Origin: Candidatus Uhrbacteria bacterium
GTDB lineage: Bacteria; Patescibacteriota; Patescibacteriia; UBA9934
Reading direction: 5' to 3'
DNA: 64,000 nucleotides
NCBI GenBank assembly: GCA_963822405.1
Contig: CAWGHH010000002.1
Coordinates: forward strand, 23,569 to 87,568
The first letter of the stretch is position 1; each line of letters begins with the position of its first letter. The position numbers were made by a program, and so were the translations under genes. Shown in pieces: positions 5,197 to 62,146 of the stretch. The notes under the pieces were generated by a model that saw only the letters and a list, made by a program, of their open reading frames with translations, was not told the DNA's origin and made no database searches.

Positions 5197-6602
5197 AATC
5201 AATAACGCAAAAACATTTCTACCAGTATCTCAAGTGTCCGTCATGGATCGCTCATGACGCTAAGGAAGCCAGACTTGAGAACAAGCTAAAAGACCGTCTG
5301 CAGCAGGACGGTCTTTTGTCGTCACATGAAAAGGAATTATTGAAGGGTCGCGACGTAATTGACGTCGGGGTCGACCCATGCGTCGACCCTGGCCACGGCG
5401 ACGTCGAAGAATTATTCGCGCGTACGCTTGAAGAAATGAAAAAAGGGACGCCTACTATTTATGGGGGAGTTCTGGTTCATGGTCGATTTGTGGCCGAACC
5501 GGATTTGCTTGAACGCGTGGAAGGGAAGTCAAAGCTTGGCAAATATTATTACGTAGCTTGTGACATAAAGCGATCAAGTAGGCTCAAAGAAGAATACAGA
5601 CTACAGGGCTGTTTTTACGCCGAACTTTTGAATTTGATTCAGGGCACTCGACCACTCCAAGGCTACATCATGCATCCTAATAAGGAGGTCGAGGCTTACT
5701 TGCTTGAGGAGACTGCGGTGAAATACCGGCTTACGCTTGATGCCATTGAGCGAATAATGGACGGGGAAGAGGAGCCTCATTTTTTGACCAGCGATTGTAA
5801 ACAGTCGCCATGGTTTTCTATTTGTAAGCAAGGCGCTATTGAATGTGACTCGCTGTCTAGACTGAATAGAATTTGGCGCAGTGAAGTTAGAATATTTGAA
5901 GAAGCTGGATTTAAAACTGTCACAGATTTTGCTAGACAAAATCCTGACCTAATTGCCGCGCGTACTTCTGGAATCACTAGGGACAGAATAGACTTTTTAC
6001 ATCTGCAGGCGCGAGCATTACTCGAAAACAGATTTCTCAAAGTCGGCTCGGTTGATCTGCCCGAGAGCGATCTCATTCTTGTGGTCGATATCGAAAGCGA
6101 TCCGTTGCGCGACGTTCACTATTTGTTTGGCGTACTCGAAAAAGGTGACGGCATAGATGTCTATCATTCTTTCTTAGCGAAAGACCCGAAAGACGAGCGC
6201 CGAGCTTGGGAAGACTTCATTGCTTTCATGAAGAATTATCCTGGCGTGCCAATTTATCATTACGGTTGGAGCGAGCAAGCTACATTTAAGGAGCTTGGCG
6301 AAAAATATGCCACGCCAATTGAAACGCTTGTCATGCTTGAAGAGCAGGGTGTTGATCTATTAATTCGGTTACGCGAAGCAGTTGTCTTTCCGTTGTCTTT
6401 CTATTCGCTCAAAGACATTGCGCAGTTTCTAGGTTTCAAATGGAGACATGCAGATGCCTCTGGTCTTAACTCCGTTCTCTGGTTTAACGAGTGGCTGACA
6501 AAGAAGGACGAGTCTGCACTTAAAGACATCATCGAGTACAATGAAGACGACGTCCGTGCGACTCTCGTTTTGATCGAATGGGCACAAAAAAACCTGAAGT
6601 AG
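5193..6602 (+). CDS. RecB-like nuclease, TM0106 family (RNase H-like C-terminal domain)
   Basis: 469 aa; C-terminal [11 protein letters not shown]...[17 protein letters not shown] exonuclease-like motifs. Carries one in-frame family-A palindromic repeat, translated as [10 protein letters not shown]. Confidence 0.55.
5367..5390. repeat. palindromic repeat family A, copy A1 (GGGGTCGAC-CCATGC-GTCGACCC), in-frame inside the nuclease CDS
   Basis: Perfect 8-9 bp inverted arms around a 6-nt spacer; same unit as 6603, 27827 and 28487. Confidence 0.85.
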
Positions 6603-6624
6603 TGGTCGACCCATGCGTCGACCA
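6603..6624. repeat. palindromic repeat family A, copy A2 (TGGTCGAC-CCATGC-GTCGACCA), intergenic
   Basis: Begins 1 nt after the nuclease stop codon and 9 nt before the next start; the hairpin could also act as a terminator. Confidence 0.85.
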
Positions 6625-6632
6625 AATCTCTT

Positions 6633-7442
6633 ATGCGAACACGCCCTCTCACTTGGAAATCTTTCTGGCCTCTTTTCCTAATTTTGATCATCGCTGGCGT
6701 CCTCAAGATCAAGACGCATTTTTCGCAACCAGTCGTGCCAACGGCTACTGTGCCGGCGGTGACGCATGAAGAAATTGTCGAGGTGCCAACCACCCCGACC
6801 GAAAGCGCGGGAGTGCCCGCGCCTGCAACCTCCCCCCAGCCCCCTCCTTCTGAAGGAGGGGGAGTAGGCGAGCATCCTGCCGAGTTCAACCTCGCCGTTC
6901 CGTTTTCATCACAGGCGCCGTTCATGAAATGGGACGCGTATCATGAGGAGTCATGTGAGGAGGCGTCGATTTTGATGACGCTCGAGTTTTATAAAGGCGC
7001 GAAGTCTGTTGATCCACAATTTGCCGACGACGAATATTTGAAAATAACAACGCTTGAAGATTCACTTGGTTATGGCTTGAGCATGACTGCCGAACAGACA
7101 GTCGACATCATTCAAAAGTACTCCGACTACTCGGCGCGCGTGATTGAGAATCCAACCGTCGATCAACTCAAAGAACTTCTAGTTAAGGGCGAGCCGATCA
7201 TCATTCCCGCCGCTGGTCGCAAGCTCGGCAATCCGTTCTTCACTGGTATTGGTCCGCTCTATCACATGCTCGTTATTCGTGGCTACACAAAAGACGGCAA
7301 GTTCATCACAAACGACCCCGGCACCCGCCACGGCGAAAACTACACCTACGACGCCTCCGTCCTCATGAACGCCATCGGCGACTGGAACAACGGCGACCCC
7401 GAACACGGCGCAAAACGCGTTGTGATTATTGAGTCAAAATAG
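6633..7442 (+). CDS. peptidase C39-like domain protein, membrane-anchored with Pro/Thr-rich linker
   Basis: N-terminal TM segment; C-terminal domain resembles the recalled C39-like/YvpB family. The linker carries the family-B palindrome, translated as SPQPPPSEGGGVGEHP. Confidence 0.5.
   Translation: MRTRPLTWKSFWPLFLILIIAGVLKIKTHFSQPVVPTATVPAVTHEEIVEVPTTPTESAGVPAPATSPQPPPSEGGGVGEHPAEFNLAVPFSSQAPFMKWDAYHEESCEEASILMTLEFYKGAKSVDPQFADDEYLKITTLEDSLGYGLSMTAEQTVDIIQKYSDYSARVIENPTVDQLKELLVKGEPIIIPAAGRKLGNPFFTGIGPLYHMLVIRGYTKDGKFITNDPGTRHGENYTYDASVLMNAIGDWNNGDPEHGAKRVVIIESK
6841..6861. repeat. palindromic repeat family B, copy B4 (CCCCTCCTTC-T-GAAGGAGGGG), in-frame in the peptidase linker
   Basis: 21-bp perfect palindrome; extended similarity to copy B5 covers 6832-6873. 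Confidence 0.8.
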
Positions 7443-47602: not shown

Positions 47603-47953
47603 ATGCGAAGCGTCGGTTTTTTTCGTTTCGTGCCGATTGTTTCTGGATTGCTCATTGTGTCGGAAATCGCCCTCATCTCTTGGCGCATTGTGCCCATGAT
47701 CTACGGACAGACCGCTGTTCCTCTGCATTATAATGTTCACATTGGTGTGGATACGGTTGGGGACTGGTGGAGAATTTACACTGTTCCGGTAGTTGCTCTC
47801 TTGGTACTTTTAGTGAACTTTGGGCTGGCTAGGTTTTTCTTCAGGCGAGAACGCGCTCTTTCTTACATGGCTTTTGGTGCTACTTTGCTACTTGAAGGTG
47901 TTTTGTTTATAGCTACCATCTTTATCATCCTCTTGAATATCTCGTATGGTTGA
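47603..47953 (+). CDS. hypothetical small membrane protein
   Basis: Three hydrophobic segments; no homology recognised. Overlaps the mraY start by 8 nt, suggesting translational coupling. Confidence 0.4.
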   Translation: MRSVGFFRFVPIVSGLLIVSEIALISWRIVPMIYGQTAVPLHYNVHIGVDTVGDWWRIYTVPVVALLVLLVNFGLARFFFRRERALSYMAFGATLLLEGVLFIATIFIILLNISYG

Positions 47954-49001
47954 TCCCTTTGCGCTCGGTAAAATTCTCCTACTCTCTACACTCGCTTTTC
48001 TAGTTGCGATTGCTTGGACTCCGGCTCTCACGCACTTTTTGTATAAATATAAGTTAGGCAAAAGTATTCGGAGCGCAGTTAAGGCGCCAATGTTCGCCGA
48101 GCTTCACAAGAAGAAGGCCGGCGTCCCAACCATGGGTGGCATTCTCATGTGGGGAACGGCTCTATTCATTGCCGTATTTTTTGCTATTTTGGCTTGGCTA
48201 TTTCCGACTAGTGGTATTGCGTCATTGAACTTTTTGACTCGTTCGCAGACTTGGTTGCCTCTGGCTGTGCTTGTGGCTGCAGGGCTAGTTGGTATCGTCG
48301 ACGATCTCTTTAATATTCTGAAGATCGGTCCAGATGGTGGCGGCATCCGTTTTCGTGAGCGCATAGTCCTTTACGCGATCATTGCCGGGATTGGTGCTTG
48401 GTGGTTCTTCTTCAAGCTTGGTTTTGATTCTCTTCATATCCCGTTTTTTGGAGACGTGGCAATGGGGGTTTGGTACATTCCGCTTTTCATCTTAGTTATC
48501 GTCGCTACATCATTCTCTGTGAACCAGACCGATGGGCTGGATGGACTGGCTGGCGGAACTCTGGCTTCGGCTTTTGCGGCCTATGCCATCATTGCGTTGC
48601 TTGAGGGTAAGGTCGAGCTGGCCGCTCTATGCGCTGTAATCGTTGGAGCTACGCTGGCGTTTCTCTGGTTCAACATTTACCCAGCGCGCTTCATCATGGG
48701 GGACACCGGCGCTATGAGTCTTGGGGTCACGCTTGGGGTGGTGGCTATGTTGACTAATACGGTGGCTCTTCTGCCTATTATTGGCATTGTTTTTGTGGGC
48801 GAGTCACTGACAACAATCATTCAAATTACTTCGAAAAAACTTTTTTACAAGAAAGTGTTTCTTATTGCGCCTATTCACCATCACTTTGAAGCTAAGGGTT
48901 GGCCAGAACCAAAAGTGGTTATGCGTTTTTGGGTGATCTCTTGGATTGGGGCTGGTATCGGTTTAATCCTGGCTCTTCTTGATCCGAGCTTCTTTTCTTA
49001 A
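47946..49001 (+). CDS. mraY: phospho-N-acetylmuramoyl-pentapeptide transferase
   Basis: NQTDGLDGLAGG and HHHFE motifs; 10 TM segments; 351 aa. Confidence 0.92.
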   Translation: MVDPFALGKILLLSTLAFLVAIAWTPALTHFLYKYKLGKSIRSAVKAPMFAELHKKKAGVPTMGGILMWGTALFIAVFFAILAWLFPTSGIASLNFLTRSQTWLPLAVLVAAGLVGIVDDLFNILKIGPDGGGIRFRERIVLYAIIAGIGAWWFFFKLGFDSLHIPFFGDVAMGVWYIPLFILVIVATSFSVNQTDGLDGLAGGTLASAFAAYAIIALLEGKVELAALCAVIVGATLAFLWFNIYPARFIMGDTGAMSLGVTLGVVAMLTNTVALLPIIGIVFVGESLTTIIQITSKKLFYKKVFLIAPIHHHFEAKGWPEPKVVMRFWVISWIGAGIGLILALLDPSFFS

Positions 49002-49022: not shown

Positions 49023-50096
49023 TTGGTCCTGCTCTCCGGTATAGTCCTTTTTGGACTAGCTATGTTGGCGTCAGCTTCCTGGCCACTTGGTTTTGATAAA
49101 TTTCATGACGGATATTATTTTGTAAAACATCAAGTTATTTTTGGTCTTATTCCTGGGGTGATCGGCGCAATTGTTGCCTCAAGGATTCCATATTCATTTT
49201 ACCGAGAATACGCTTGGGCCATGTTACTTATCTCTATCGGGCTTCTCGTTCTAGTCTTTGTCCCAGGTTTGAGTGCAGACTTCGGCTCTTCGAAGAGTTG
49301 GATCACGCTCGGCAGTTTTTCTGTTCAGCCGTCAGAAATTGTTAAGCTGACTTTTCTTATTTACTTGGCCGCGTGGATGGAAAAGCGTTCAAAGGATGAT
49401 CTGCATAGCGTTAATACCGGCTTGATTCCATTCATGACAATTCTTGGGGTAATTATGGGACTGTTGATTTTAGAGCCCGACACTGGCTCAATGGCGATAA
49501 TCGTCGCTATGTCATTGGCGGTATATTTTGTGGCTGGTGCGCCACTTCGTTACTTCTTTTTGTTTGGCGGGCTGGGAGCTGGAATTTTCTGGTTACTCAT
49601 AAAAATTTCGCCTTATCGAGCCGCTCGGTTTACTACTTTTCTTCATCCAGAACTTGATCCTCAGGGTATCGGTTACCACATTAACCAGGCTCTCCTCGCA
49701 ATTGGTTCTGGTGGTATTTTTGGTCGAGGGTATGGCCACTCCGTACAAAAGTTTCAGTATCTACCGGAGGTTGAAGGGGACAGTATATTTGCGGTGGCTG
49801 GCGAGGAACTTGGTTTTATTCTTACGGCCGCCTTCCTTCTAATGTATGTATCCTTTCTTTGGCGAGGTCTGACAATTGCTGACCGAGCACCAGACGCCTT
49901 TGGCCGATATTTAGCCGTTGGTATTATTTCTTGGTTCGGCATCCAGGCCTTTGTTAACATCGGCGCCATGGTTGGCGTTCTACCAATTACTGGTGTTCCT
50001 TTGCCATTTGTCAGCTACGGCGGAACTTCTCTGGCCGTCTGTCTAACAGCAGCGGGTATACTATTGAATATATCGAAGGAGATGAAAGAAACCTAA
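49023..50096 (+). CDS. ftsW: SEDS-family peptidoglycan glycosyltransferase FtsW/RodA
   Basis: GSGGIFGRGYGHSVQKFQYLPEVEGDSIFAVAGEELGF matches the SEDS signature; 357 aa; polytopic. Confidence 0.88.
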   Translation: MVLLSGIVLFGLAMLASASWPLGFDKFHDGYYFVKHQVIFGLIPGVIGAIVASRIPYSFYREYAWAMLLISIGLLVLVFVPGLSADFGSSKSWITLGSFSVQPSEIVKLTFLIYLAAWMEKRSKDDLHSVNTGLIPFMTILGVIMGLLILEPDTGSMAIIVAMSLAVYFVAGAPLRYFFLFGGLGAGIFWLLIKISPYRAARFTTFLHPELDPQGIGYHINQALLAIGSGGIFGRGYGHSVQKFQYLPEVEGDSIFAVAGEELGFILTAAFLLMYVSFLWRGLTIADRAPDAFGRYLAVGIISWFGIQAFVNIGAMVGVLPITGVPLPFVSYGGTSLAVCLTAAGILLNISKEMKET

Positions 50097-50150: not shown

Positions 50151-51230
50151 ATGAAAACAGTTTTATTCACAGGCGGTGGCACTCTTGGTCCGGTTACGCC
50201 TCTTTTATCAGCGGCGCGTCTTTTGCGTGAAATAAATCCGGACGTGAAAATTGTTTGGATCGGTACACCGGACGGGCCGGAACGTGAGCTTGTTGAACGG
50301 GACAGCTATGAGTTTCGCTCGCTCAAGGCACCGAAGCTAGATCGAACTCGACCGTGGACTTTGCCGTTAGTTCTTCCGCAATTTATTATCAGTTGTTTTC
50401 AGGCGTACGCTATGTTGCAGGACATTGATCCGTTTACGGTTGTTAGCGCGGGTGCGTACGTGAGCGTGCCGGTGGCCTTCATGGCGAAGACGCTTGGTAT
50501 CCCGGTAGTTATTGAACAGCTCGATGTTGTTCCTGGGATTGCGAATAAATTAATGGCGCGGGTAGCGAAAAAGATTTTTGTTACTTGGCCAGAAAATCTT
50601 TCAGCGTTTCCAAAAGGGAAGACAGAAGTGGCCGGTGGTTCTGTTCGCAAATCTATGTTGCGCGGCGAAGCACACTTGGCGCGCGAACGGTTCGGTCTTA
50701 GACGAACATTGCCGACCATACTCGTGATCGGCGGGGGTACAGGTGCGGCGAGCATGAACGAAATATTTTTGACGATCGGTCCTGAGCTTGTAAAATTCGC
50801 CAATGTGATCCATCTAACCGGCAAGGGCAAGATGTTGCCGGGGCTTGAGCAGATCGGTGACGGATACAAGGCCGTTGAATTTTTGGGCGAGTCACTTGCG
50901 GATGCCTACGCCCTTGCTGACGTCGTCGTTGCTCGCGCTGGGATGGGAACCATCATGGAGGTGGCCGCGCTTAAGAAGCCAACGATTCTCATTCCTATTC
51001 CGGGTACGCACCAAGAAGCAAATGCTAAAGCTGTGGAATCTCGTGGCGCGGCACTTTCGCTATTCGGCGACGCAACTCCGCAAAATCTTTTGCAGGCTAT
51101 TAAGAAACTTATTCAAGACGATCTTAAGCGAGCCGAACTTTCTGAGGCAGTAGGGAAGCTCTTCCTATTTAATCTCGACGAAATGTTGGTATCAGCGGTA
51201 GAGTATCCTCATGACCTGGGAAATGCCTGA
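50151..51230 (+). CDS. murG: undecaprenyldiphospho-muramoylpentapeptide beta-N-acetylglucosaminyltransferase
   Basis: MKTVLFTGGGTLGPVTPLL N-terminal G-loop and C-terminal GGGTGAASMNE motif (GT28); 359 aa. Confidence 0.9.
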   Translation: MKTVLFTGGGTLGPVTPLLSAARLLREINPDVKIVWIGTPDGPERELVERDSYEFRSLKAPKLDRTRPWTLPLVLPQFIISCFQAYAMLQDIDPFTVVSAGAYVSVPVAFMAKTLGIPVVIEQLDVVPGIANKLMARVAKKIFVTWPENLSAFPKGKTEVAGGSVRKSMLRGEAHLARERFGLRRTLPTILVIGGGTGAASMNEIFLTIGPELVKFANVIHLTGKGKMLPGLEQIGDGYKAVEFLGESLADAYALADVVVARAGMGTIMEVAALKKPTILIPIPGTHQEANAKAVESRGAALSLFGDATPQNLLQAIKKLIQDDLKRAELSEAVGKLFLFNLDEMLVSAVEYPHDLGNA

Positions 51231-53427: not shown

Positions 53428-53500
53428 GCGCTGGTAGCTCAGCTGGTAGAGCACAGGCCTTTTAAGCCTATGGTCATGGGTTCGAATCCCATCCGGCGCA
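53428..53500 (+). tRNA. tRNA-Lys (anticodon UUU)
   Basis: Cloverleaf checked by hand: acceptor GCGCTGG/CCGGCGC, D-arm GCTC-AGCTGGTA-GAGC, anticodon loop CTTTTAA, T-arm ATGGG-TTCGAAT-CCCAT. CCA is encoded at 53501-53503. Confidence 0.92.
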
Positions 53501-53506
53501 CCAGAG

Positions 53507-55096: not shown

Positions 55097-57613
55097 ATGC
55101 TGGATGTACGTCCTTGGCATCATTTGAGTACCGCGGAGGTGATGACTTCGCTTGGTTCGGGGCGTGAGGGGTTAACAGAGGTTGAGGCGAAGAAGCGGTT
55201 GGCTGGGTTGCCTAAGTTGGCCAGACCGCGGGCTACTCGCTCGACTAAAATTTTGTTACGCCAATTTACTAGTCCGTTCATGTTGATTTTGGCGGTGGCC
55301 GTTGGCTTAAGTGCGGTGACGAGCGAGTGGCAAGATGTGTCTTTGATAGTCGCGATCGTTCTATTTAATGTTGGCCTTGGGTTCTTTCAAGAGTACAAAG
55401 CTGACCGAGCACTGTTTGCGCTCGCCCAGCTATTACCACGAACTGCGAGTGTACGTAGGGACGGAGTGATGAAAACTATTTCTGCGGACGAGGTTGTTCC
55501 AGGGGACGTGATGTACTTAACTTCCGGGGATCGAATAGTAGCTGACGCCCGAGTCATTTCTTCGACTAATTGTTTGACTAACGAATCTGCTTTGACGGGG
55601 GAGTCAGAACCAGTTGAAAAATTAAGTCATCACGTAGCGCTAGACGTTTCAACGCCCGAACAGCATTCTATGGTTTTTGCGGGAACAATAGTTGTCGGTG
55701 GAAAAGCGCAGGTGATGGTGGTGGGGGTAGGCGAGCAAACGGCGCTTGGCAAGATTTCGATTTTGGTTTCAGACGTTAGCGAAACAGAAACGCCTTTGAC
55801 TATAGAGCTAAAACGTTTCTCACGAAGAGTAGCTGTCTTAATTGCGCTGGTTGCTGTTGGCGTATTTTTTCTTGGCGTAGTGCGTGCCGAGCCGACCATT
55901 TCGATGCTCACTTTGTCAGCTGCCCTTGCTGTGGCTGCTGTGCCCGAGGGACTGACGGTGGCTTTGACGGTAATTTTTGTCGCTGCCATGAGGCGGATGG
56001 CTAGGCGTGGTGCCTTGACGCGGCGAATGGTGGCGGCTGAGACGCTCGGCGCGGTAACGGTTATGTGCATGGACAAGACGGGAACGCTGACCACGGGGGA
56101 GATGAAAGTAGAAATGTTCGACGGCGATAGTGAAGCAACATCGATCTTTGCGGCTCTCCTTGCGGTAAACGATGGCCATGCAACGCCTCTAGAAAAGGCG
56201 GGGAGAGAATTCCTCGACACTCGAGCACCATCAGTCCCGACACCTGTAGTGACGCATGAGTTGCCATTTGATTCTCGTCATAAATTTTCAGCCGTTGTCG
56301 CGCAGATGAATGGTGATGAAACACTATGCGTCATGGGTGCGCCCGATATTCTTTTCCAATTACTTGGCATATATCCAGACGCACTTGAGAAACTGAAAGC
56401 AACTCACCGTGAGTTAATGAGCCAGGGACTCAGAGTTTTGTTAATCGCTAAGTGCGATTGGACAGATGAAAAACTTACGGCGAAGTCTGTAAATAATCTC
56501 GTGCCAGTAAGTTTTGTTGGTTTGCGAGATCCTTTGCGAGTAGAAGCAAAGCACGTAGTCATGAATGCCTTACTCGCCGGCGTGCGTTCTGTGATGGTGA
56601 CGGGTGATCATGAAGACACAGCGCGCGGAATTGCTGTGTCGCTTGGTTTATCCGTGCACGCCGGGGCGGTAATTTCGCACAATGAACTGGTTACACTCGA
56701 CGACCAGCAACTAGCAAAACGAATTAATGCAGTTCGAGTTTTTGCGCGAGTATTACCGGAAGACAAAGTGCGAATTGTGCAGGCTTTTCAGCGAGCGGGA
56801 CACATTGTAGCCATGACTGGGGATGGGGTGAATGACGCGCCGGCACTTAAGGCCGCAGATATTGGCGTGGCCATGGGTAGCGGAACAGACGTTGCAAAAG
56901 AAGCGGCGGATATGGTCTTGCTCGACGATAATATTGCTACTTTGCTTGCCGCTATTCGGGAGGGCCGCGTACTTTATGACAATGTGCGCAAAGTCGTCGC
57001 TTACCTGATGACGTTTAGTTTGAGCGAGGTGGCGGTGATTGTATTCGCTTTGGTGGCAAATATTCCGGTCCCGTTTCTGCCGATCCATCTTTTGTTTATA
57101 AACATCGTGACTGACGGTTTTCCAGCCATGGCTTTAGCTTTTGAGTCTGGCGAGCCAGGAATCATGCGAGCTGGGGCGCGCCGGAAAGATGAAGCAGTTA
57201 TTAATTCGAACTTGTTGTGGCTCATGACGGCGATTGGTGCGGTTTCTGTCTTGTCCCTCGCGATTCTGCAAGGATTTTTGTTTAAGGCTGGAGTATCAAT
57301 TGAGGCCACTCGAACTGTTCTCTTTTTGTCCTTGTGTTTAGACGGCGTGATGGCTGTGTTTGTGATCCGTCATCTACGTGGTCATGCCTTTATGCGGGGG
57401 AGCGAGCGGAACAGAGCGTTTGTTCCGGCTGTGCTTGCGAGCATTGTTTCGATTATTCTAGTTTTGGGTGTTCCAAACCTTCGTGAGGCCTTTGGATTCT
57501 CAATTTTACCGGGTATTGGATTCGCTACACTGTGCCTTCTTCTTCTCATTAAGTTTGGTCTCTTCGAAGGTCTTAAACACCTAGTCATTCCTGAATCAAG
57601 AGGCATCATGTAG
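55097..57613 (+). CDS. cation-transporting P-type ATPase (P2/P3-type, Ca2+/Mg2+-like)
   Basis: CMDKTGTLT phosphorylation motif, TGES actuator motif (LTGESEPV), MTGDGVNDAPALK hinge motif; 838 aa; 10 TM segments. Confidence 0.9.
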   Translation: MLDVRPWHHLSTAEVMTSLGSGREGLTEVEAKKRLAGLPKLARPRATRSTKILLRQFTSPFMLILAVAVGLSAVTSEWQDVSLIVAIVLFNVGLGFFQEYKADRALFALAQLLPRTASVRRDGVMKTISADEVVPGDVMYLTSGDRIVADARVISSTNCLTNESALTGESEPVEKLSHHVALDVSTPEQHSMVFAGTIVVGGKAQVMVVGVGEQTALGKISILVSDVSETETPLTIELKRFSRRVAVLIALVAVGVFFLGVVRAEPTISMLTLSAALAVAAVPEGLTVALTVIFVAAMRRMARRGALTRRMVAAETLGAVTVMCMDKTGTLTTGEMKVEMFDGDSEATSIFAALLAVNDGHATPLEKAGREFLDTRAPSVPTPVVTHELPFDSRHKFSAVVAQMNGDETLCVMGAPDILFQLLGIYPDALEKLKATHRELMSQGLRVLLIAKCDWTDEKLTAKSVNNLVPVSFVGLRDPLRVEAKHVVMNALLAGVRSVMVTGDHEDTARGIAVSLGLSVHAGAVISHNELVTLDDQQLAKRINAVRVFARVLPEDKVRIVQAFQRAGHIVAMTGDGVNDAPALKAADIGVAMGSGTDVAKEAADMVLLDDNIATLLAAIREGRVLYDNVRKVVAYLMTFSLSEVAVIVFALVANIPVPFLPIHLLFINIVTDGFPAMALAFESGEPGIMRAGARRKDEAVINSNLLWLMTAIGAVSVLSLAILQGFLFKAGVSIEATRTVLFLSLCLDGVMAVFVIRHLRGHAFMRGSERNRAFVPAVLASIVSIILVLGVPNLREAFGFSILPGIGFATLCLLLLIKFGLFEGLKHLVIPESRGIM

Positions 57614-57625
57614 AATGTCCGCATT

Positions 57626-59083
57626 ATGGACCTCAGCAAAATCGCCAGTTTTAAGGATGCCATTGTTACCGTCATGGGACTTGGTCGGTATAAGCAGGGA
57701 AGCGGACTCGGCACTGCCAAGTGGCTCATGCGTCACGAGGCGCAAACGGTCATCACTGATTTGAAAGACGAGAAAGAACTGAAGGAATCAGTTGACCTTG
57801 TCATGGAATGGTTTAATAAATACAAGGAAATGTATCCAGACAGAACTATTTATCAGCCATTATTTATTTTGGGCGAGCATAGAAAGGAGGATTTTACCGG
57901 TGTTGATTGTGTCGTGCAGAACCCCGGCGTGCCAAGCGAGAGCGAGTTTGTACAGCAAGCAAAGGCTGAGAATATTCACATTGAGTCAGATGTCAGTTTG
58001 TTCTTCCGTTATTACCCGCATGAGATCATCGCTGTTACTGGAACAAAGGGTAAGACGACGACTACTCTCATGCTTGGCGAAATGGTGAAGACGCTTGACC
58101 CGGCCACGATCATTGCCGGTAACGTGAAGGTTTCGCCACTCGAATTCCTTGATGACCTACTTGTGAAAGACATGAAGACGCCGGTAGTGCTCGAACTCTC
58201 CTCGTGGCTCCTTGAAAGTTTGCCTGGCGCGTTTGCCGAGATGAAGAAGGGTCCAGAGATTGCGGTGTTAACAAACGTCTTCCCAGATCACTTGAACCGT
58301 TATGCTTCTTTCGAGGACTACCAGAAGTCCAAGGAAATCATTTTCGAGTACCAAACTCCAGAACAGTACACGGTCTTGAACCGTGACCACGACCTCGTCA
58401 AAGCCATGGCTTCACAAGTTAAGGGCAAGCTTTATTGGTTCTCGAAGACCGATGATGGTACTTCTAATGGCTGTTTCTTAAAGGGCGAGGCCGTTGTTTT
58501 CCGAAAAGATGGCGTCGAAACGATCATCTGTTCTTACAAGGATGTCGCACTTCAGGGCGAGCATAACCTTGAAAATGTTTTGTCGGCTGCGTGTGCCGCC
58601 ATGCTTCGAGGAGTCAGCGTCGAAGGTGTCGCGAAAGTGCTTAAGGAGTTCAAAGGCGTGCCTGACCGCCAAGAGTTGGTTCGAGAGGTAGACGAAATCA
58701 TGTACATCAATGACACAGCTGCGACTGCGCCAACTGCTGTCGTCGCCGCACTTAAGGTTTACGGCAAAGACAAGAAAGCTATTCTCATTGCCGGCGGTGT
58801 CGACAAAAAATTGCCATACGAAGAAATGATCGCGGAAGCCGTTAAGGGCTGCAAGGCCGTCATTCTGTTCCCCGGCGACGCATCCGACATTATCGAAAAA
58901 GGTTTACTTGGCAAGGTCGCCATCGAACACGCCGCTAACATGAAAGAAGCGGTCCAGAAATCTCGTAAACTTGCGGAAACCGGCGATATTGTCTTACTTT
59001 CTCCTGGAGCTGCCAGCTTCAACATCTTTAAAAATGAATTTGACCGCGGTGAGCAGTTCAGAGAAGAAGTGAGAAATTTGTAG
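57626..59083 (+). CDS. murD: UDP-N-acetylmuramoylalanine--D-glutamate ligase
   Basis: N-terminal Rossmann-like VTVMGLGRYKQGSGLGTAKWL, GVDCVVQNPGVP, P-loop IIAVTGTKGKTTTT; 485 aa. Confidence 0.85.
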   Translation: MDLSKIASFKDAIVTVMGLGRYKQGSGLGTAKWLMRHEAQTVITDLKDEKELKESVDLVMEWFNKYKEMYPDRTIYQPLFILGEHRKEDFTGVDCVVQNPGVPSESEFVQQAKAENIHIESDVSLFFRYYPHEIIAVTGTKGKTTTTLMLGEMVKTLDPATIIAGNVKVSPLEFLDDLLVKDMKTPVVLELSSWLLESLPGAFAEMKKGPEIAVLTNVFPDHLNRYASFEDYQKSKEIIFEYQTPEQYTVLNRDHDLVKAMASQVKGKLYWFSKTDDGTSNGCFLKGEAVVFRKDGVETIICSYKDVALQGEHNLENVLSAACAAMLRGVSVEGVAKVLKEFKGVPDRQELVREVDEIMYINDTAATAPTAVVAALKVYGKDKKAILIAGGVDKKLPYEEMIAEAVKGCKAVILFPGDASDIIEKGLLGKVAIEHAANMKEAVQKSRKLAETGDIVLLSPGAASFNIFKNEFDRGEQFREEVRNL

Positions 59084-59084
59084 G

Positions 59085-59327
59085 TTGGACGAGGTTTTGG
59101 TGGGCGTGGTAATGTGTAAATATATGACGTCAAAAGCCATGCAGGCAGTGATTGAGAATATTTCCGAGCGGCTCGGGATTCTTGAGCGTAAAATTGGTAC
59201 GCCGCAAAAAAAGTTAAGTCCTGAAGATCGTCAAAGAATTCATGACGAGACTTTTGGTTCGATCGATAAAAAGCGAGCGAAAGCGATGATAACTTTTCTG
59301 AATAAATCGCGGAATTCTGGGAGATAA
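59085..59327 (+). CDS. putative antitoxin partner of the downstream PIN protein (small hypothetical)
   Basis: 80-aa ORF (TTG at 59085; alternative ATGs at 59112 and 59124) ending 2 nt before the PIN gene; no known antitoxin fold recognised. Confidence 0.4.
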   Translation: MDEVLVGVVMCKYMTSKAMQAVIENISERLGILERKIGTPQKKLSPEDRQRIHDETFGSIDKKRAKAMITFLNKSRNSGR

Positions 59328-59329
59328 GT

Positions 59330-59695
59330 ATGGCACTTGCCGTATTGGATTCGAATGCTCTAATTTACCATGTGGGTGGATTGCAGACGATTCCCGATTT
59401 GCTCACGAGCACCTATGCAGTTTCCTCGGTTATTGTTTTTGAGTTATTGCGCTTTCCTGGGATGTCAAAACAGGAAGAGTCATCTTTAATCAAGGCTATT
59501 GATTATTGTGAGATTGTAGGTGTTACTGAGGCGATTGCTTTTCGAGCGGCTTTTTTGAGTCGGATACGTCCACGTGGTAAAGCTATGGATATATTTATCG
59601 CGGCAACTGCCCTGGAATTAGACATTCCTTTGATTACGGGTAACATTAAAGACTTTAAGAATATTCCCGGTCTTCAGGTTAAGAGTGAATTTTGA
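59330..59695 (+). CDS. vapC: PIN-domain ribonuclease toxin (VapC-like)
   Basis: VLDSNALIY (Asp1), FELL (Glu), DIFIAATALELDIPLITGNIKDF (Asp3/Asp4 region); 121 aa. Confidence 0.8.
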   Translation: MALAVLDSNALIYHVGGLQTIPDLLTSTYAVSSVIVFELLRFPGMSKQEESSLIKAIDYCEIVGVTEAIAFRAAFLSRIRPRGKAMDIFIAATALELDIPLITGNIKDFKNIPGLQVKSEF

Positions 59696-60993
59696 TTATG
59701 TTGCACCAGCTTAAAAAACTTGTTCCTCGTCCGGTACTTCAGATCTATCACTTCGCCCTCGCAAAAACGGCTGAGGCTGTTTATCGGCATCCGTCGGAGA
59801 AGCTCGTCGTCATCGGCGTCACGGGGACAAACGGCAAGTCATCAACGGTTAATTTCATCGCACAGATTTTGAATAACCTCGGCGAAACTGTTGGTTATAC
59901 GTCGACTGCCGGTTTTTCGATCGCGGGGAAGGAAGTCGAGAATAAGATGAAGATGACCATGCCGGGGAGATTCTATTTGCAGAAGATCATGAGCGAGATG
60001 GTGAAGGAGAAATGCGCGTACGCTGTTATTGAAACGTCTAGTCAAGGACTCGACCAGTTCCGCCACCTCGGTATCAATTATGACGTCGCTGTTTTTACAA
60101 ACCTCACACCGGAACATATTGAAGCGCACGGAGGATTCGAAAATTACAAGAAGGCAAAAGGGAAGTTGTTCGAGCATCTGACAAATCGTCGAAAGAAACA
60201 CTTTGAAGGACATGAAGTGCCGAAGACAATTATCGTGAATGGTGACGACGAACACTCGGCGTACTTTGCATCTTTTCCGGCCGATAAACATGTGTCATTT
60301 AGTTTTACGGAAAAGGTGATTCGGGCGGGTGACGTGATTCACCCTGTCGACAAGCTACCATTACGCGCCGAGTTCGAGCAGAAGAATGCGCTGGCTGCTA
60401 TTGCCACGGTTGAGGCTCTAGGTTTCCCATTGAAGCGTGTGCTCGACGCAGCTGAGTTGCTCCGACCACTCGCTGGCCGTTTCGAAAAGATCGAGCAAGG
60501 TCAGCCTTTTGCGGTTATTGTCGACTACGCGTATGAACCTTATGCGCTCCAGGCACTATATGATGCTGTGAGTGGGCCGACATCGAAGTCGGCCCTTACC
60601 TCGAGGATCATCGGTGTACACGGTTCGGCGGGGGGAGGGCGTGATATTGCGCGTCGTCCTATCATCGGCAAACTCGCCGGTGAACACGAGGCTGTAGTGA
60701 TTGTGACGAATGAGGATCCGTACGATGAGGATCCGCGAGAGATCATTGAGGCCGTTGCGTCGGGCGCTCGCGAAGCGGGGAAGATTGAGGGAAAAGATTT
60801 GTTCTTGGTCGACGACCGCAGAGAAGCCATTGAGAAAGCGTTCGAGCTCGCCAAACCGGGTGATACTGTTTTATTAACAGGCAAAGGTTCGGAACCGGTG
60901 ATGGCTGTGGCTGGCGGAAAGAAAATTGCCTGGGATGATAGAATTGCTGCGCGAGAAATCTTAGCTCAGATGGGGTATCATAAAGCCGTATGA
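59692..60993 (+). CDS. murE: Mur ligase, MurE-like (UDP-MurNAc-L-Ala-D-Glu:diamino acid ligase)
   Basis: P-loop VIGVTGTNGKSST and the IETSSQGL motif (MurE-type E.SSHGL); 433 aa with a short N-terminal domain; 4-nt overlap with the PIN gene. Confidence 0.72.
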   Translation: MIMLHQLKKLVPRPVLQIYHFALAKTAEAVYRHPSEKLVVIGVTGTNGKSSTVNFIAQILNNLGETVGYTSTAGFSIAGKEVENKMKMTMPGRFYLQKIMSEMVKEKCAYAVIETSSQGLDQFRHLGINYDVAVFTNLTPEHIEAHGGFENYKKAKGKLFEHLTNRRKKHFEGHEVPKTIIVNGDDEHSAYFASFPADKHVSFSFTEKVIRAGDVIHPVDKLPLRAEFEQKNALAAIATVEALGFPLKRVLDAAELLRPLAGRFEKIEQGQPFAVIVDYAYEPYALQALYDAVSGPTSKSALTSRIIGVHGSAGGGRDIARRPIIGKLAGEHEAVVIVTNEDPYDEDPREIIEAVASGAREAGKIEGKDLFLVDDRREAIEKAFELAKPGDTVLLTGKGSEPVMAVAGGKKIAWDDRIAAREILAQMGYHKAV

Positions 60994-61406
60994 CGAAGGG
61001 CGAGGGCGGTGGCAAAAAAAGTATTTTTCTACTAGCGACCATGGTTGTGGCTGGTGTTTTCGTTTTTGGCTTTGGCCGAGAGTACTTGCGCGAGCGAGAA
61101 ATTGCGATGCAAATTTCTTCATTGCAGGCTGAAAATGATCGGCTCGACGGGAAGAAGCTGGAGTTTTTGGATTTGATCGACAAGCTATCTAGCCAGTACT
61201 ATTTAGAAGGACAGGCTCGAACAAAAGAGGGGCTAGCGAAGCCGGGTGAGACACTTTTGGTTGTCGATGCCGGTCAGTCTGCAACTACGGTCACGTCTGG
61301 CAAGGTTCTTGGCGCAACAGACATGGCAGAGGACATTAGTAATCCAACCCGTTGGTTTTACTATTTTTTTGACCGCACCAAGTTTGATTCCATGAGTAAG
61401 CTATGA
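60990..61406 (+). CDS. septum formation initiator-like protein (FtsB/DivIC family)
   Basis: Single N-terminal TM segment (IFLLATMVVAGVFVFGFG), then a coiled coil (LQAENDRLDGKKLEFLDLIDKL); 138 aa; located in the cell-wall/division cluster. Confidence 0.5.
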   Translation: MTKGEGGGKKSIFLLATMVVAGVFVFGFGREYLREREIAMQISSLQAENDRLDGKKLEFLDLIDKLSSQYYLEGQARTKEGLAKPGETLLVVDAGQSATTVTSGKVLGATDMAEDISNPTRWFYYFFDRTKFDSMSKL

Positions 61407-62146
61407 GGACGCTGGTTAGTCTGCTTTTAGCCGCGTATCTCGGGCTGCACTTTATTGTTTTTGTGTTTCACCCGTTGTCGGGTGTTTTTCTTTCTTTGTC
61501 GCATGTTGTGCTTCCGGCGGCTATCGTCGACGGCCGTCCGGTTTGGTATCCGCGCGTTGCGACCTTCGCCAAAATTGCTCGCGCCGAAGAACCGACTATG
61601 AAGAAGCGTGATGTTGTCGAGCTCGGACTTCAGGAGGCGGTGTATGAAGCTCGTGTACGAAACATATTGCGACAAACTCATGCTCCGTTTGACCAAAAGA
61701 ACCGAGAAGATCCAGTTGCCGGTGTCGTCGAACTCTCCCGCGCTGCAAACGCCGCCGTTTTCGCTTCGGTCGATCTTCAATCGGATGTGAAGCTACGACT
61801 CGACGGTTTACGTTCGCGTATCGTTAACGACGGTCTGCCATTTGGTGACGCCGCGATGCGCTACTCGGAACATCCTTCAGCGAAATTCAACGGAGATCTT
61901 GGTCTGTTGGATAGCCAAACTGTCCCGGGGTGGATGAAAAAAGTTTTCGAATTATCTGTCCTCGAGGTCTCTCAACCGATAAATGGTCTGGATTCATATT
62001 GGCTATTTCTCATTCGTTCAGAAGCCGGCAAAGACGCTGAACATATGGGAGGAAGAGTAAGTGGTATCGCCTTCCGCAAAAAAGAGCTTCCTGCCATCAT
62101 CGCCAAATCTGCCAAGAACGATAGGCCGTGGGTGTTTGTGTGGTAA
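61403..62146 (+). CDS. membrane-anchored parvulin-type (PpiC) peptidyl-prolyl isomerase
   Basis: C-terminal FGDAAMRYSEHPSAKFNGDLGLLDSQTVPGWMKKVFELSVLEVSQPINGLDSYWLFLI resembles the PpiC rotamase domain; N-terminal TM segment. Confidence 0.55.
   Translation: MRTLVSLLLAAYLGLHFIVFVFHPLSGVFLSLSHVVLPAAIVDGRPVWYPRVATFAKIARAEEPTMKKRDVVELGLQEAVYEARVRNILRQTHAPFDQKNREDPVAGVVELSRAANAAVFASVDLQSDVKLRLDGLRSRIVNDGLPFGDAAMRYSEHPSAKFNGDLGLLDSQTVPGWMKKVFELSVLEVSQPINGLDSYWLFLIRSEAGKDAEHMGGRVSGIAFRKKELPAIIAKSAKNDRPWVFVW

Follow-up and report, generated by a model that had tools for sequence, protein, structure and literature searches.

What are two small genes doing between murD and murE, two genes of a cell-wall synthesis cluster, in a Candidatus Uhrbacteria bacterium? 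In the window examined here, i.e., the whole stretch of 64,000 nucleotides, four co-oriented genes follow each other as murD, a small gene, a gene for a PIN-domain protein, and murE, and this order raises the question of whether the inner pair is a toxin-antitoxin module set inside an operon of essential genes, as a first-pass annotation of the DNA had proposed, and what kind of antitoxin the small protein might be. The comparisons described below lead us to regard positions 59084 to 59697 (window numbering and + strand throughout, unless stated otherwise) as probably a self-contained accessory type II VapC toxin-antitoxin module of about 610 bp, with an antitoxin that belongs to a new family without a recognisable DNA-binding domain. 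The labels toxin and antitoxin are used in the sense suggested by gene order, family membership, and the pattern of gene decay. The contig comes from a metagenome-assembled genome of Patescibacteria, and its nearest GTDB relatives bear the labels Candidatus Uhrbacteria or "Patescibacteria group". L-numbers denote loci or contigs of relatives, and P-numbers denote members of the small-protein family.

A PIN-domain gene and its upstream partner

The second gene of the pair (59330–59695; 121 aa) encodes a protein that matches the PIN-domain family PF01850 with 39.2 bits (cut-off 23.6; expect value, E, 1.2e-9), residues 5–113 aligning with profile positions 2–118 of 120, so that the PIN open reading frame (ORF) initially proposed here is borne out. 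The FELL and DIFIAATA motifs, which had been named as signatures, are both present. The acidic residues are D7, E38, D87, and D108; in the alignment of the subfamily the last three are invariant and D7 occurs in all full-length members, and thus the set of catalytic residues stands as described, except that its first aspartate is D7 and not D5. Moreover, the subfamily profile matches solved VapC toxins over its own full length, such as 7by2_B (7e-18) and that of Rickettsia felis (3zvk_A, 1e-13), with further matches to 6nkl, 5k8j, and the Shigella protein 3tnd. Regarding specificity, the protein falls far short of the cut-offs of the NCBIfam equivalogs of VapC specific for tRNA(fMet) (NF047863, 31.4 bits vs 140; NF010285, 14.6 bits vs 143), and for this reason no RNA target can be assigned. 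Judged by its sequence, the PIN protein is a candidate toxin and an unremarkable new addition to the VapC family.

The gene directly upstream (59124–59327) encodes a putative antitoxin of 67 aa, which was characterised with homologue alignments, substitution rates, and AlphaFold2 models. Its ratio of nonsynonymous to synonymous substitution rates (dN/dS) against the closest homologues is 0.17–0.27, and this value, together with homologues in 11 distinct loci, indicates that the gene is under purifying selection and is more than a chance ORF, in agreement with the initial view that a genuine small ORF precedes the PIN gene. The length of 80 aa first given to it is not tenable: the corresponding start, TTG at 59085, was rejected because the homologues begin with MTTKA, and a second candidate, ATG at 59112 (71 aa), was rejected because it is not kept in the DNA alignment of the relatives, where L002 and L010 have ACTG.

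A further correction concerns the spacing of the four genes, which had been described as a chain of 4-nt overlaps. The gaps measured are 40, 2, and 2 nt: the murD stop ends at 59083 and the small-gene ATG is at 59124, the small-gene stop ends at 59327 and the PIN ATG is at 59330, and the PIN stop ends at 59695 and the murE ATG is at 59698. The apparent overlap came from a murE start at TTG 59692, which was rejected because the relatives use the ATG equivalent to 59698; MurE of every relative begins with MLHQ or MLHH, and the overlap is therefore an artefact of calling the longest ORF. The antitoxin-first gene order with 2-nt spacing and the intact PIN active site are among the grounds for reading the pair as a toxin-antitoxin module.

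The flanks themselves are as first proposed. On the left, murD (57626–59083), encoding UDP-N-acetylmuramoyl-L-alanine--D-glutamate ligase, is identified by TIGR01087 (E 1e-107) and by the Pfam domains Mur_ligase_M and Mur_ligase_C; on the right, murE (59698–60993) is identified by TIGR01085 (E 2.9e-95), with its start fixed by the MLHQLKK of the relatives.

Conservation of the pair carries much of the argument. The annotation had named beforehand, as its own test, whether the small ORF is kept with the PIN gene in other genomes, and at each of the 11 distinct loci recovered a PIN gene of one and the same subfamily comes directly after the small gene; these loci are the window (=L001), L002 (=L003), L004, L005, L006, L009, L010 (=L011), L093, L094 (=L095), L096, and L097, with the PIN genes at those loci scoring E values of 1e-33 to 1e-59 against the hidden Markov model (HMM) of the subfamily. 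These loci represent at least five unrelated genomic contexts. The cassette lies between murD and murE in the window, L009, and L002; in L006 it has a different upstream gene, with murE downstream; in L010 a reverse-transcriptase gene lies upstream; in L004 it is found with mreB, a glycosyltransferase gene (GT4), and TrmB; and in L094 it follows rpsG and fusA and precedes a phosphotransferase gene (APH). A pairing that extends to distant members in unrelated contexts (L004, L094, L010, L093, L096, and L097) argues for a toxin-antitoxin module.

In two of the loci, the PIN gene is broken and the small gene is intact. In L006 (729–1094), the codon that corresponds to Arg82 in the protein of the window is replaced by an in-frame TGA, and the leftover ORF of 36 codons ends 1 nt before the murE ATG, whereas in L097 (about 490–1100) a frameshift occurs after about residue 40. 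A toxin-antitoxin pair is expected to decay in this way, with the toxin lost and the antitoxin retained.

In this region, the DNA best conserved between the window and L006 or L010 is the segment 59174–59353, which covers the antitoxin gene in its 3' half together with its junction to the PIN gene; for the window and L006, nucleotide identity peaks at 0.89 over the antitoxin 3' half vs about 0.78 in the flanks and murE. For the same pair, synonymous divergence (dS) is 0.33 for the antitoxin gene, 1.9 for the PIN gene, and 2.2 for murE. The low value for the antitoxin gene could mean that the segment was exchanged recently or that its nucleotides are under constraint, and the shortness of the segment prevents transfer from being told apart from sequence constraint in this search for a recent recombination tract.

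Some of these loci have further genes of related kinds in their surroundings. The L004 contig, whose cassette is 52% identical, carries a second pair at 6455–6890, in which an ORF of 70 aa overlaps one of 83 aa that matches PIN_3 weakly, and a HicB-like antitoxin gene lies near the cassette in L097, which points to neighbourhoods rich in toxin-antitoxin genes in both cases. The reverse-transcriptase gene mentioned above is represented on two short metagenome contigs by its C-terminal part (L010:3–554 and L011:2–508; RVT_1, 1.3e-10), and it overlaps the cassette promoter.

The small protein and the expression signals of the cassette

The family to which the small protein belongs is rare. Word-seeded searches of 5.8 billion proteins returned nine relatives, and when 1.84 billion cluster representatives were searched exhaustively with HMMER, there were 21 matches at E ≤ 1e-3, one of which, the top match P0022, was discarded because it is an artefact of a perfect tandem repeat and not a relative; about 20 representatives in this set of 1.84 billion thus make up the family. 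Scanning metagenomes with the alignment of the antitoxin added no locus to those already recovered.

Members are 67–91 aa long and share one layout, i.e., an N-terminal heptad helix, a linker of variable length, and a C-terminal motif. In the helix, positions 6, 10, 13, 17, and 20 are occupied by I, L, M, V, or F in at least 95% of the members and position 24 in 78%, and this spacing corresponds to the a/d pattern of about three heptads, as in coiled coils. The C-terminal motif reads I39-(W/L)-x2-T43-(F/Y)-G45-x-I-(S/D)-K-K-R51-A-x2-M-L-x2-I59-x3-R63-x2-W66, or TFGxISKKRAxxxLxxIxxxRxxW in condensed form, with G45 and R63 invariant throughout the family. Both the heptad pattern and these invariant residues support the module reading, as does a promoter geometry that is kept across the family (see below). 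The AlphaFold2 models of the window protein are all-helical, with predicted helices at residues 3–24, 33–42, and 49–66 and no HTH (helix-turn-helix), RHH (ribbon-helix-helix), or AbrB element. The predicted local distance difference test scores are 69.6 and 81.2 (81 with 25 sequences), and the predicted template modelling scores of 0.28–0.37 denote no compact fold, as would be expected if folding takes place on the partner protein.

The first-pass annotation had remarked that the partner does not look like AbrB, RHH, or Phd, and the library searches agree. None of 25 members matched the AbrB/SpoVT, RHH/CopG/MetJ, Phd/YefM, or HTH-Xre families of Pfam at E up to 1, and no member of the family has a match above threshold in Pfam, NCBIfam, or PADLOC. 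Against PDB sequences, a profile of the family retrieved coiled coils of designed or GCN4 type and nothing else, one built from the C-terminal part alone had no match, and a Foldseek comparison of the model with PDB gave nothing with E < 5. The suggestion that this may be a new antitoxin type therefore gains support, as the family is rare and absent from the libraries searched.

The closest approach to a known family is PF02697 (VAPB_antitox). Membership was considered and rejected, since the best score is 15.8 bits vs a cut-off of 27.9, only two of the 25 members are concerned, and the family consensus gives no match. In these two, P0018 and P0019, residues 32–64 align with positions 35–67 of the 69 in the profile at 15–16 bits (E 0.025–0.046, below threshold), and the N-terminal halves cannot be aligned; the C-terminal module may be distantly homologous to PF02697.

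A divergent branch is found in L005 (P0020 and P0021; 83–85 aa), in which the C-terminal FGxLS...R..W is kept and the N-terminus is different and, by eye, rich in beta structure; this suggests that the C-terminal module can combine with different N-terminal modules. The same locus has a GGAG Shine-Dalgarno motif and a neighbourhood that appears proteobacterial in type (PilY1-like) by eye.

Regarding expression, the 40 nt between murD and the small gene hold an extended -10 element, TGGTAATGT (59107–59115; pattern TGnTAnnnT), whose position is conserved in relatives: it ends 8 nt before the antitoxin ATG in the window and likewise in L009, L002, L006, L010, L093, L094, and L097, and 9 nt before it in L004. 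In L096, the arrangement is TTGACC-17-TATATT, with its end 8 nt before the start codon that the other family members use. A -35-like hexamer lies 18–19 nt upstream of the -10 element, and it is conserved in L002, L006, and L010; in the window it is TTGGAC (59085–59090), a weak element read from the sequence and to be regarded as putative, and in relatives it is TAGACG or TTGGAC. In most loci, the last three bases of the spacer between the -10 element and the ATG are YAT, a placement that implies a canonical transcription start 2 nt before the ATG and a near-leaderless mRNA; the start of cassette transcription is accordingly predicted at about 59122, with a leader of 0–2 nt. A generic scan for sigma-70 promoters and terminators found no more sites than in shuffled controls and did not call the -35-like hexamer. 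For comparison, Shine-Dalgarno motifs are almost never seen at gene starts of the host, and -10-like elements occur, for example, before murD (TAGAAT, 9 nt before the ATG) and before the gene of a P-type ATPase (TGGTAATAT, 7 nt).

Further downstream, a GGGAGA motif lies 5 nt upstream of the PIN ATG. The ATG of the next gene follows the PIN stop after 1–2 nt both in the mur context and, independently, in L094, and no terminator-like site was detected from the murD start to the 3' part of murE, the nearest sites on the + strand being at 57342 and 60846. Upstream of murE, no Shine-Dalgarno-like or -10-like element was recognised on reading the sequence; with its ATG 2 nt after the PIN stop and no ribosome-binding signal, murE is probably translated in a manner coupled to the PIN gene. 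As murE in this arrangement lacks the spacer of L007 type, which carries GGAGGA, we infer that it is probably translated by reinitiation after the PIN gene. Apparent terminator hairpins were noticed by eye after the PIN gene in L004 and L093.

The murD–murE junction as an insertion site

That the pair is an insertion follows from genomes in which the junction is uninterrupted. In L007, a Patescibacteria contig of 897 kb with a MurD that shares 95.3% identity with that of the window, and in L008, murD is followed by a 44-bp spacer and then by murE, with no trace of the cassette, and comparison with this junction delimits the inserted segment, i.e., promoter, small gene, and PIN gene, as 59084–59697. 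An aligner paired the 44-nt spacer of L007 with the cassette promoter, and the spacer was considered as a promoter remnant left by a precise deletion; the similarity was judged spurious, since the spacer contains no TGnTAnnnT and has GGAGGA instead. The cassette is also absent from 80 GTDB relatives, including every representative with murD next to murE. The annotation had suggested asking whether murD is directly followed by murE in relatives, and this is the case in L007 and L008 as well as in 12 GTDB species.

A census of this junction covered the 19 fetched GTDB relatives with murD upstream of murE. The two genes are adjacent in 12 of them (gaps of 0–193 bp), while the other 7 have 0.4–3.3 kb of unrelated cargo at this place. 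Two cargoes contain genes of the toxin type. In L019 (CAZBFG010000045.1, positions 174–1678; MurE 85% identical), the junction holds an unknown 247-aa ORF and a HEPN-MNT pair, with scores of 1.7e-33 for HEPN (NTase_sub_bind) and 7e-10 for the nucleotidyltransferase (NTP_transf_2), which is another toxin-antitoxin type; in L018 (195–3445), a Pfam scan identified a Fic-domain gene, DUF218, and a methyltransferase, along with an unassigned 164-aa ORF. Such toxin-type cargo at the same junction in relatives, HEPN-MNT in one and Fic in the other, favours the module reading. The cargoes of L022, L023, L024, L032, and L041 consist of SET-domain-like, methyltransferase-like, and Nudix-like ORFs (by eye), a 76-aa membrane protein, and unknowns.

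The junction is thus a recurrent site of accessory genes in this Uhrbacteria-like lineage of Patescibacteria. Recurrent cargo also makes the location of the cassette in an operon less remarkable than first proposed: the insertion does lie among essential genes, and the claim that such a placement is uncommon is weakened, because 7 of the 19 relatives hold other cargo there and the cell-wall cluster is already fragmented.

The cassette differs from its surroundings in rate of divergence and composition. Between the window and L009, identity is 95.7% for MurD, 90.7% for the ATPase, and 86.1% for MurE, vs 47.9% for the PIN protein and 54% for the small protein. The cassette thus diverges far faster than its flanks, and cassette relationships do not track those of the flanks. 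Its GC content is about 42%, compared with 48–52% in the flanks. Together with the patchy presence and absence, a cassette identity of 48–54% next to a MurD of 95.7% and the low GC content are further grounds for considering the module accessory. No integrase or repeats were found, and searches of plasmid, phage, and IMG/VR collections returned no relatives.

Proposed working of the module, alternatives, and genomic setting

To place these observations in context, it is useful to recall that PIN/VapC modules are the most numerous toxin-antitoxin family. The cassette resembles the VapBC systems of Shigella flexneri, Rickettsia felis (VapBC2), and Caulobacter crescentus (VapBC1), and FitAB of Neisseria gonorrhoeae, in having a PIN protein of about 120–130 aa with four acidic residues, an antitoxin gene that comes first with tight spacing, and a small antitoxin with an invariant arginine in its conserved C-terminal part. 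In known complexes, conserved C-terminal arginines of VapB enter the active sites of VapC, and a leucine-zipper-like VapB helix packs on VapC (PMC5389673). The solved VapB and FitA antitoxins begin with an AbrB/SpoVT or RHH domain, and those that have been studied autoregulate (PMC4803016), the VapBC complexes binding their own operators (PMC4803016). The small protein differs from them in lacking an AbrB, RHH, Phd/YefM, or HTH domain and in starting with a heptad helix instead; in addition, the active-site arginines of the solved VapB proteins lie in an extended tail, whereas the position predicted for R63 is helical. What is new here is confined to the antitoxin, the toxin being an ordinary relative of VapC.

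On this basis, the PIN protein would act as a VapC-type Mg2+-dependent endoribonuclease, and the 67-residue protein would be its cognate antitoxin. The N-terminal helix of three heptads, which would stand in place of the usual DNA-binding domain, may serve as a coiled-coil contact, either for dimerisation of the antitoxin or for packing on the helices of the PIN protein, and the C-terminal helix-loop-helix would cover the active-site groove of the latter. There, Arg63, and perhaps also the conserved basic residue at position 51, may neutralise the acidic pocket, a role proposed because the C-terminal arginines of known VapB/FitA antitoxins act likewise. With no recognisable DNA-binding domain, the antitoxin would probably not autoregulate; transcription would instead proceed from the extended -10 promoter of the cassette as a near-leaderless mRNA, with additional read-through from murD. 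Acquisition at the murD–murE landing site would probably have taken place via homologous recombination in the conserved flanks, and exchange through the mur flanks is, we infer, the simplest route.

The nearest functional analogue of such an antitoxin appears to be archaeal aRelB (aRelBE of Pyrococcus horikoshii), which is likewise small and without a recognised DNA-binding fold, forms no hydrophobic core by itself, and is wrapped around the toxin. The likeness concerns the mode of working and is not one of homology. The toxin of aRelB is RelE and not a PIN protein, and no sequence similarity was detected, aRelB being absent from the matches of the PDB profile search at E up to 10. Dimerisation through a leucine zipper has been proposed for it (PMC4803016). 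As for expression, leaderless toxin-antitoxin transcripts are known from Mycobacterium tuberculosis, in which, as here, a TAnnnT -10 element lies immediately upstream of the antitoxin start codon; however, that organism belongs to a different phylum, the leaderlessness of the cassette is a prediction from sequence, and many other gene starts of the host share this geometry.

Several points weigh against the module as we read it, or against parts of it. With about 20 family representatives, the statistics of co-occurrence are small. Codon 66 (59319–59321) encodes Gly in the window, while Trp66 is present in 15 of 23 members, including the closest relatives, and the antitoxin models are only moderately confident. 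The promoter geometry is not peculiar to the cassette: TAnnnT occurs 5–10 nt upstream in 12 of 33 host gene starts, vs 7.3% of all ATGs, so the element is a typical host promoter and not a cassette-specific one, and the pattern suggests widespread leaderless or near-leaderless transcription in this genome. Finally, a short coiled coil with basic flanks could bind DNA, as proposed for archaeal aRelB (PMC4803016).

This last point leads to an alternative in which the small protein is a leucine-zipper dimer that binds DNA and autoregulates, with K4, R16, and K49–R51 contacting an operator over the -35 and -10 elements, so that the module would be a conventional VapBC. The heptad helix is conserved, zipper-mediated DNA recognition has been proposed for aRelB, in which the DNA-binding domain is otherwise unclear (PMC4803016), and the entire 40-nt spacer is promoter, so that any repressor would have to bind there. 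Yet the helix starts at residue 3, which leaves no basic region N-terminal to the zipper, the protein has no match to any DNA-binding family, and reading the promoter regions by eye, with no repeat-finding tool run, revealed no conserved inverted repeat; we therefore consider this alternative unlikely. We would give slightly more room, though still as a tentative and rather doubtful proposal, to the view that the cassette is an anti-phage abortive-infection system and the murD–murE junction a miniature defence islet, in which infection frees the PIN RNase and translation stops. Gene types of defence islands do occur at the same junction in relatives (HEPN-MNT in L019 and Fic in L018), the cassettes of L010 and L011 adjoin a reverse-transcriptase gene, and the divergence of toxin and antitoxin, much faster than that of the flanks (48–54% vs 95.7%), is expected of genes in conflict with invaders. 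However, neither protein matches a PADLOC defence model, the cassette has no relatives in phage, plasmid, or IMG/VR collections, and much of the junction cargo is not defence-like, such as the methyltransferases, DUF218, the SET-like and Nudix-like ORFs seen by eye, and the small membrane protein.

A reading without any toxin, namely that a housekeeping RNase and its adaptor or chaperone tune the murD–murE transcript, would agree with the tight embedding in the operon, the lack of a terminator, and the murE ATG 2 nt after the PIN stop, as well as with the occupation of the same position in four related genomes (the window, L009, L002, and L006). The distribution largely refutes it: neither the closest relatives nor any GTDB representative with murD next to murE has the pair, members of the family are found in unrelated contexts, two loci have an inactivated PIN gene, and other genomes hold unrelated cargo at this junction. 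We find this reading hardly credible.

If the accessory VapC module is accepted, a conserved PIN partner with no more than a coiled-coil helix plus a binding motif in its C-terminal part would extend the range of known antitoxin architectures, and one would then have to ask how a module of this kind is regulated. A bolder extension, which we put forward as a speculation with the odds clearly against it, is a new class of PIN antitoxin in which the coiled-coil helix replaces the autoregulatory DNA-binding domain and the cassette, being unable to regulate itself, draws on a minimal leaderless promoter together with the host operon. The essential gene downstream (murE here; another gene in L094) would then depend for its translation on the toxin gene, and the cassette would thus have a safeguard against deletion or silencing that acts through the operon, on top of classical post-segregational killing, with housekeeping junctions serving as recombination landing pads in compact Patescibacteria genomes. 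Moreover, Patescibacteria have tiny genomes with little room for accessory DNA, and the module would be one of few described at the sequence level in this group, for which our literature search found none. The genomes with the insertion, without it, with divergent cassettes, and with a decayed PIN gene form a natural comparison set, which shows the entry and decay of accessory genes inside a housekeeping operon.

The wider surroundings of the junction complete the description. The cell-wall cluster of the window is fragmented: mraY (47946–49001), ftsW (49023–50096), and murG (50151–51230) are followed by an unknown gene of 252 aa, a DUF218 gene on the minus strand, tRNA-Lys (53428–53503), and two unknown genes, after which the gene of an 838-aa P-type cation ATPase (55097–57613) directly precedes murD. 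An Rfam scan detected two tRNAs only. MurE is short (431 aa), with a TIGR01085 alignment that begins at profile position 67 and no N-terminal Mur ligase domain of Pfam, and this is a feature of the lineage and not an effect of the insertion, because all relatives (L007, L009, and L012–L091) share the MLHQ/MLHH start. Downstream of murE lie divIC/ftsB (60990–61406) and then a gene for a PpiC-type isomerase (61403–62146).

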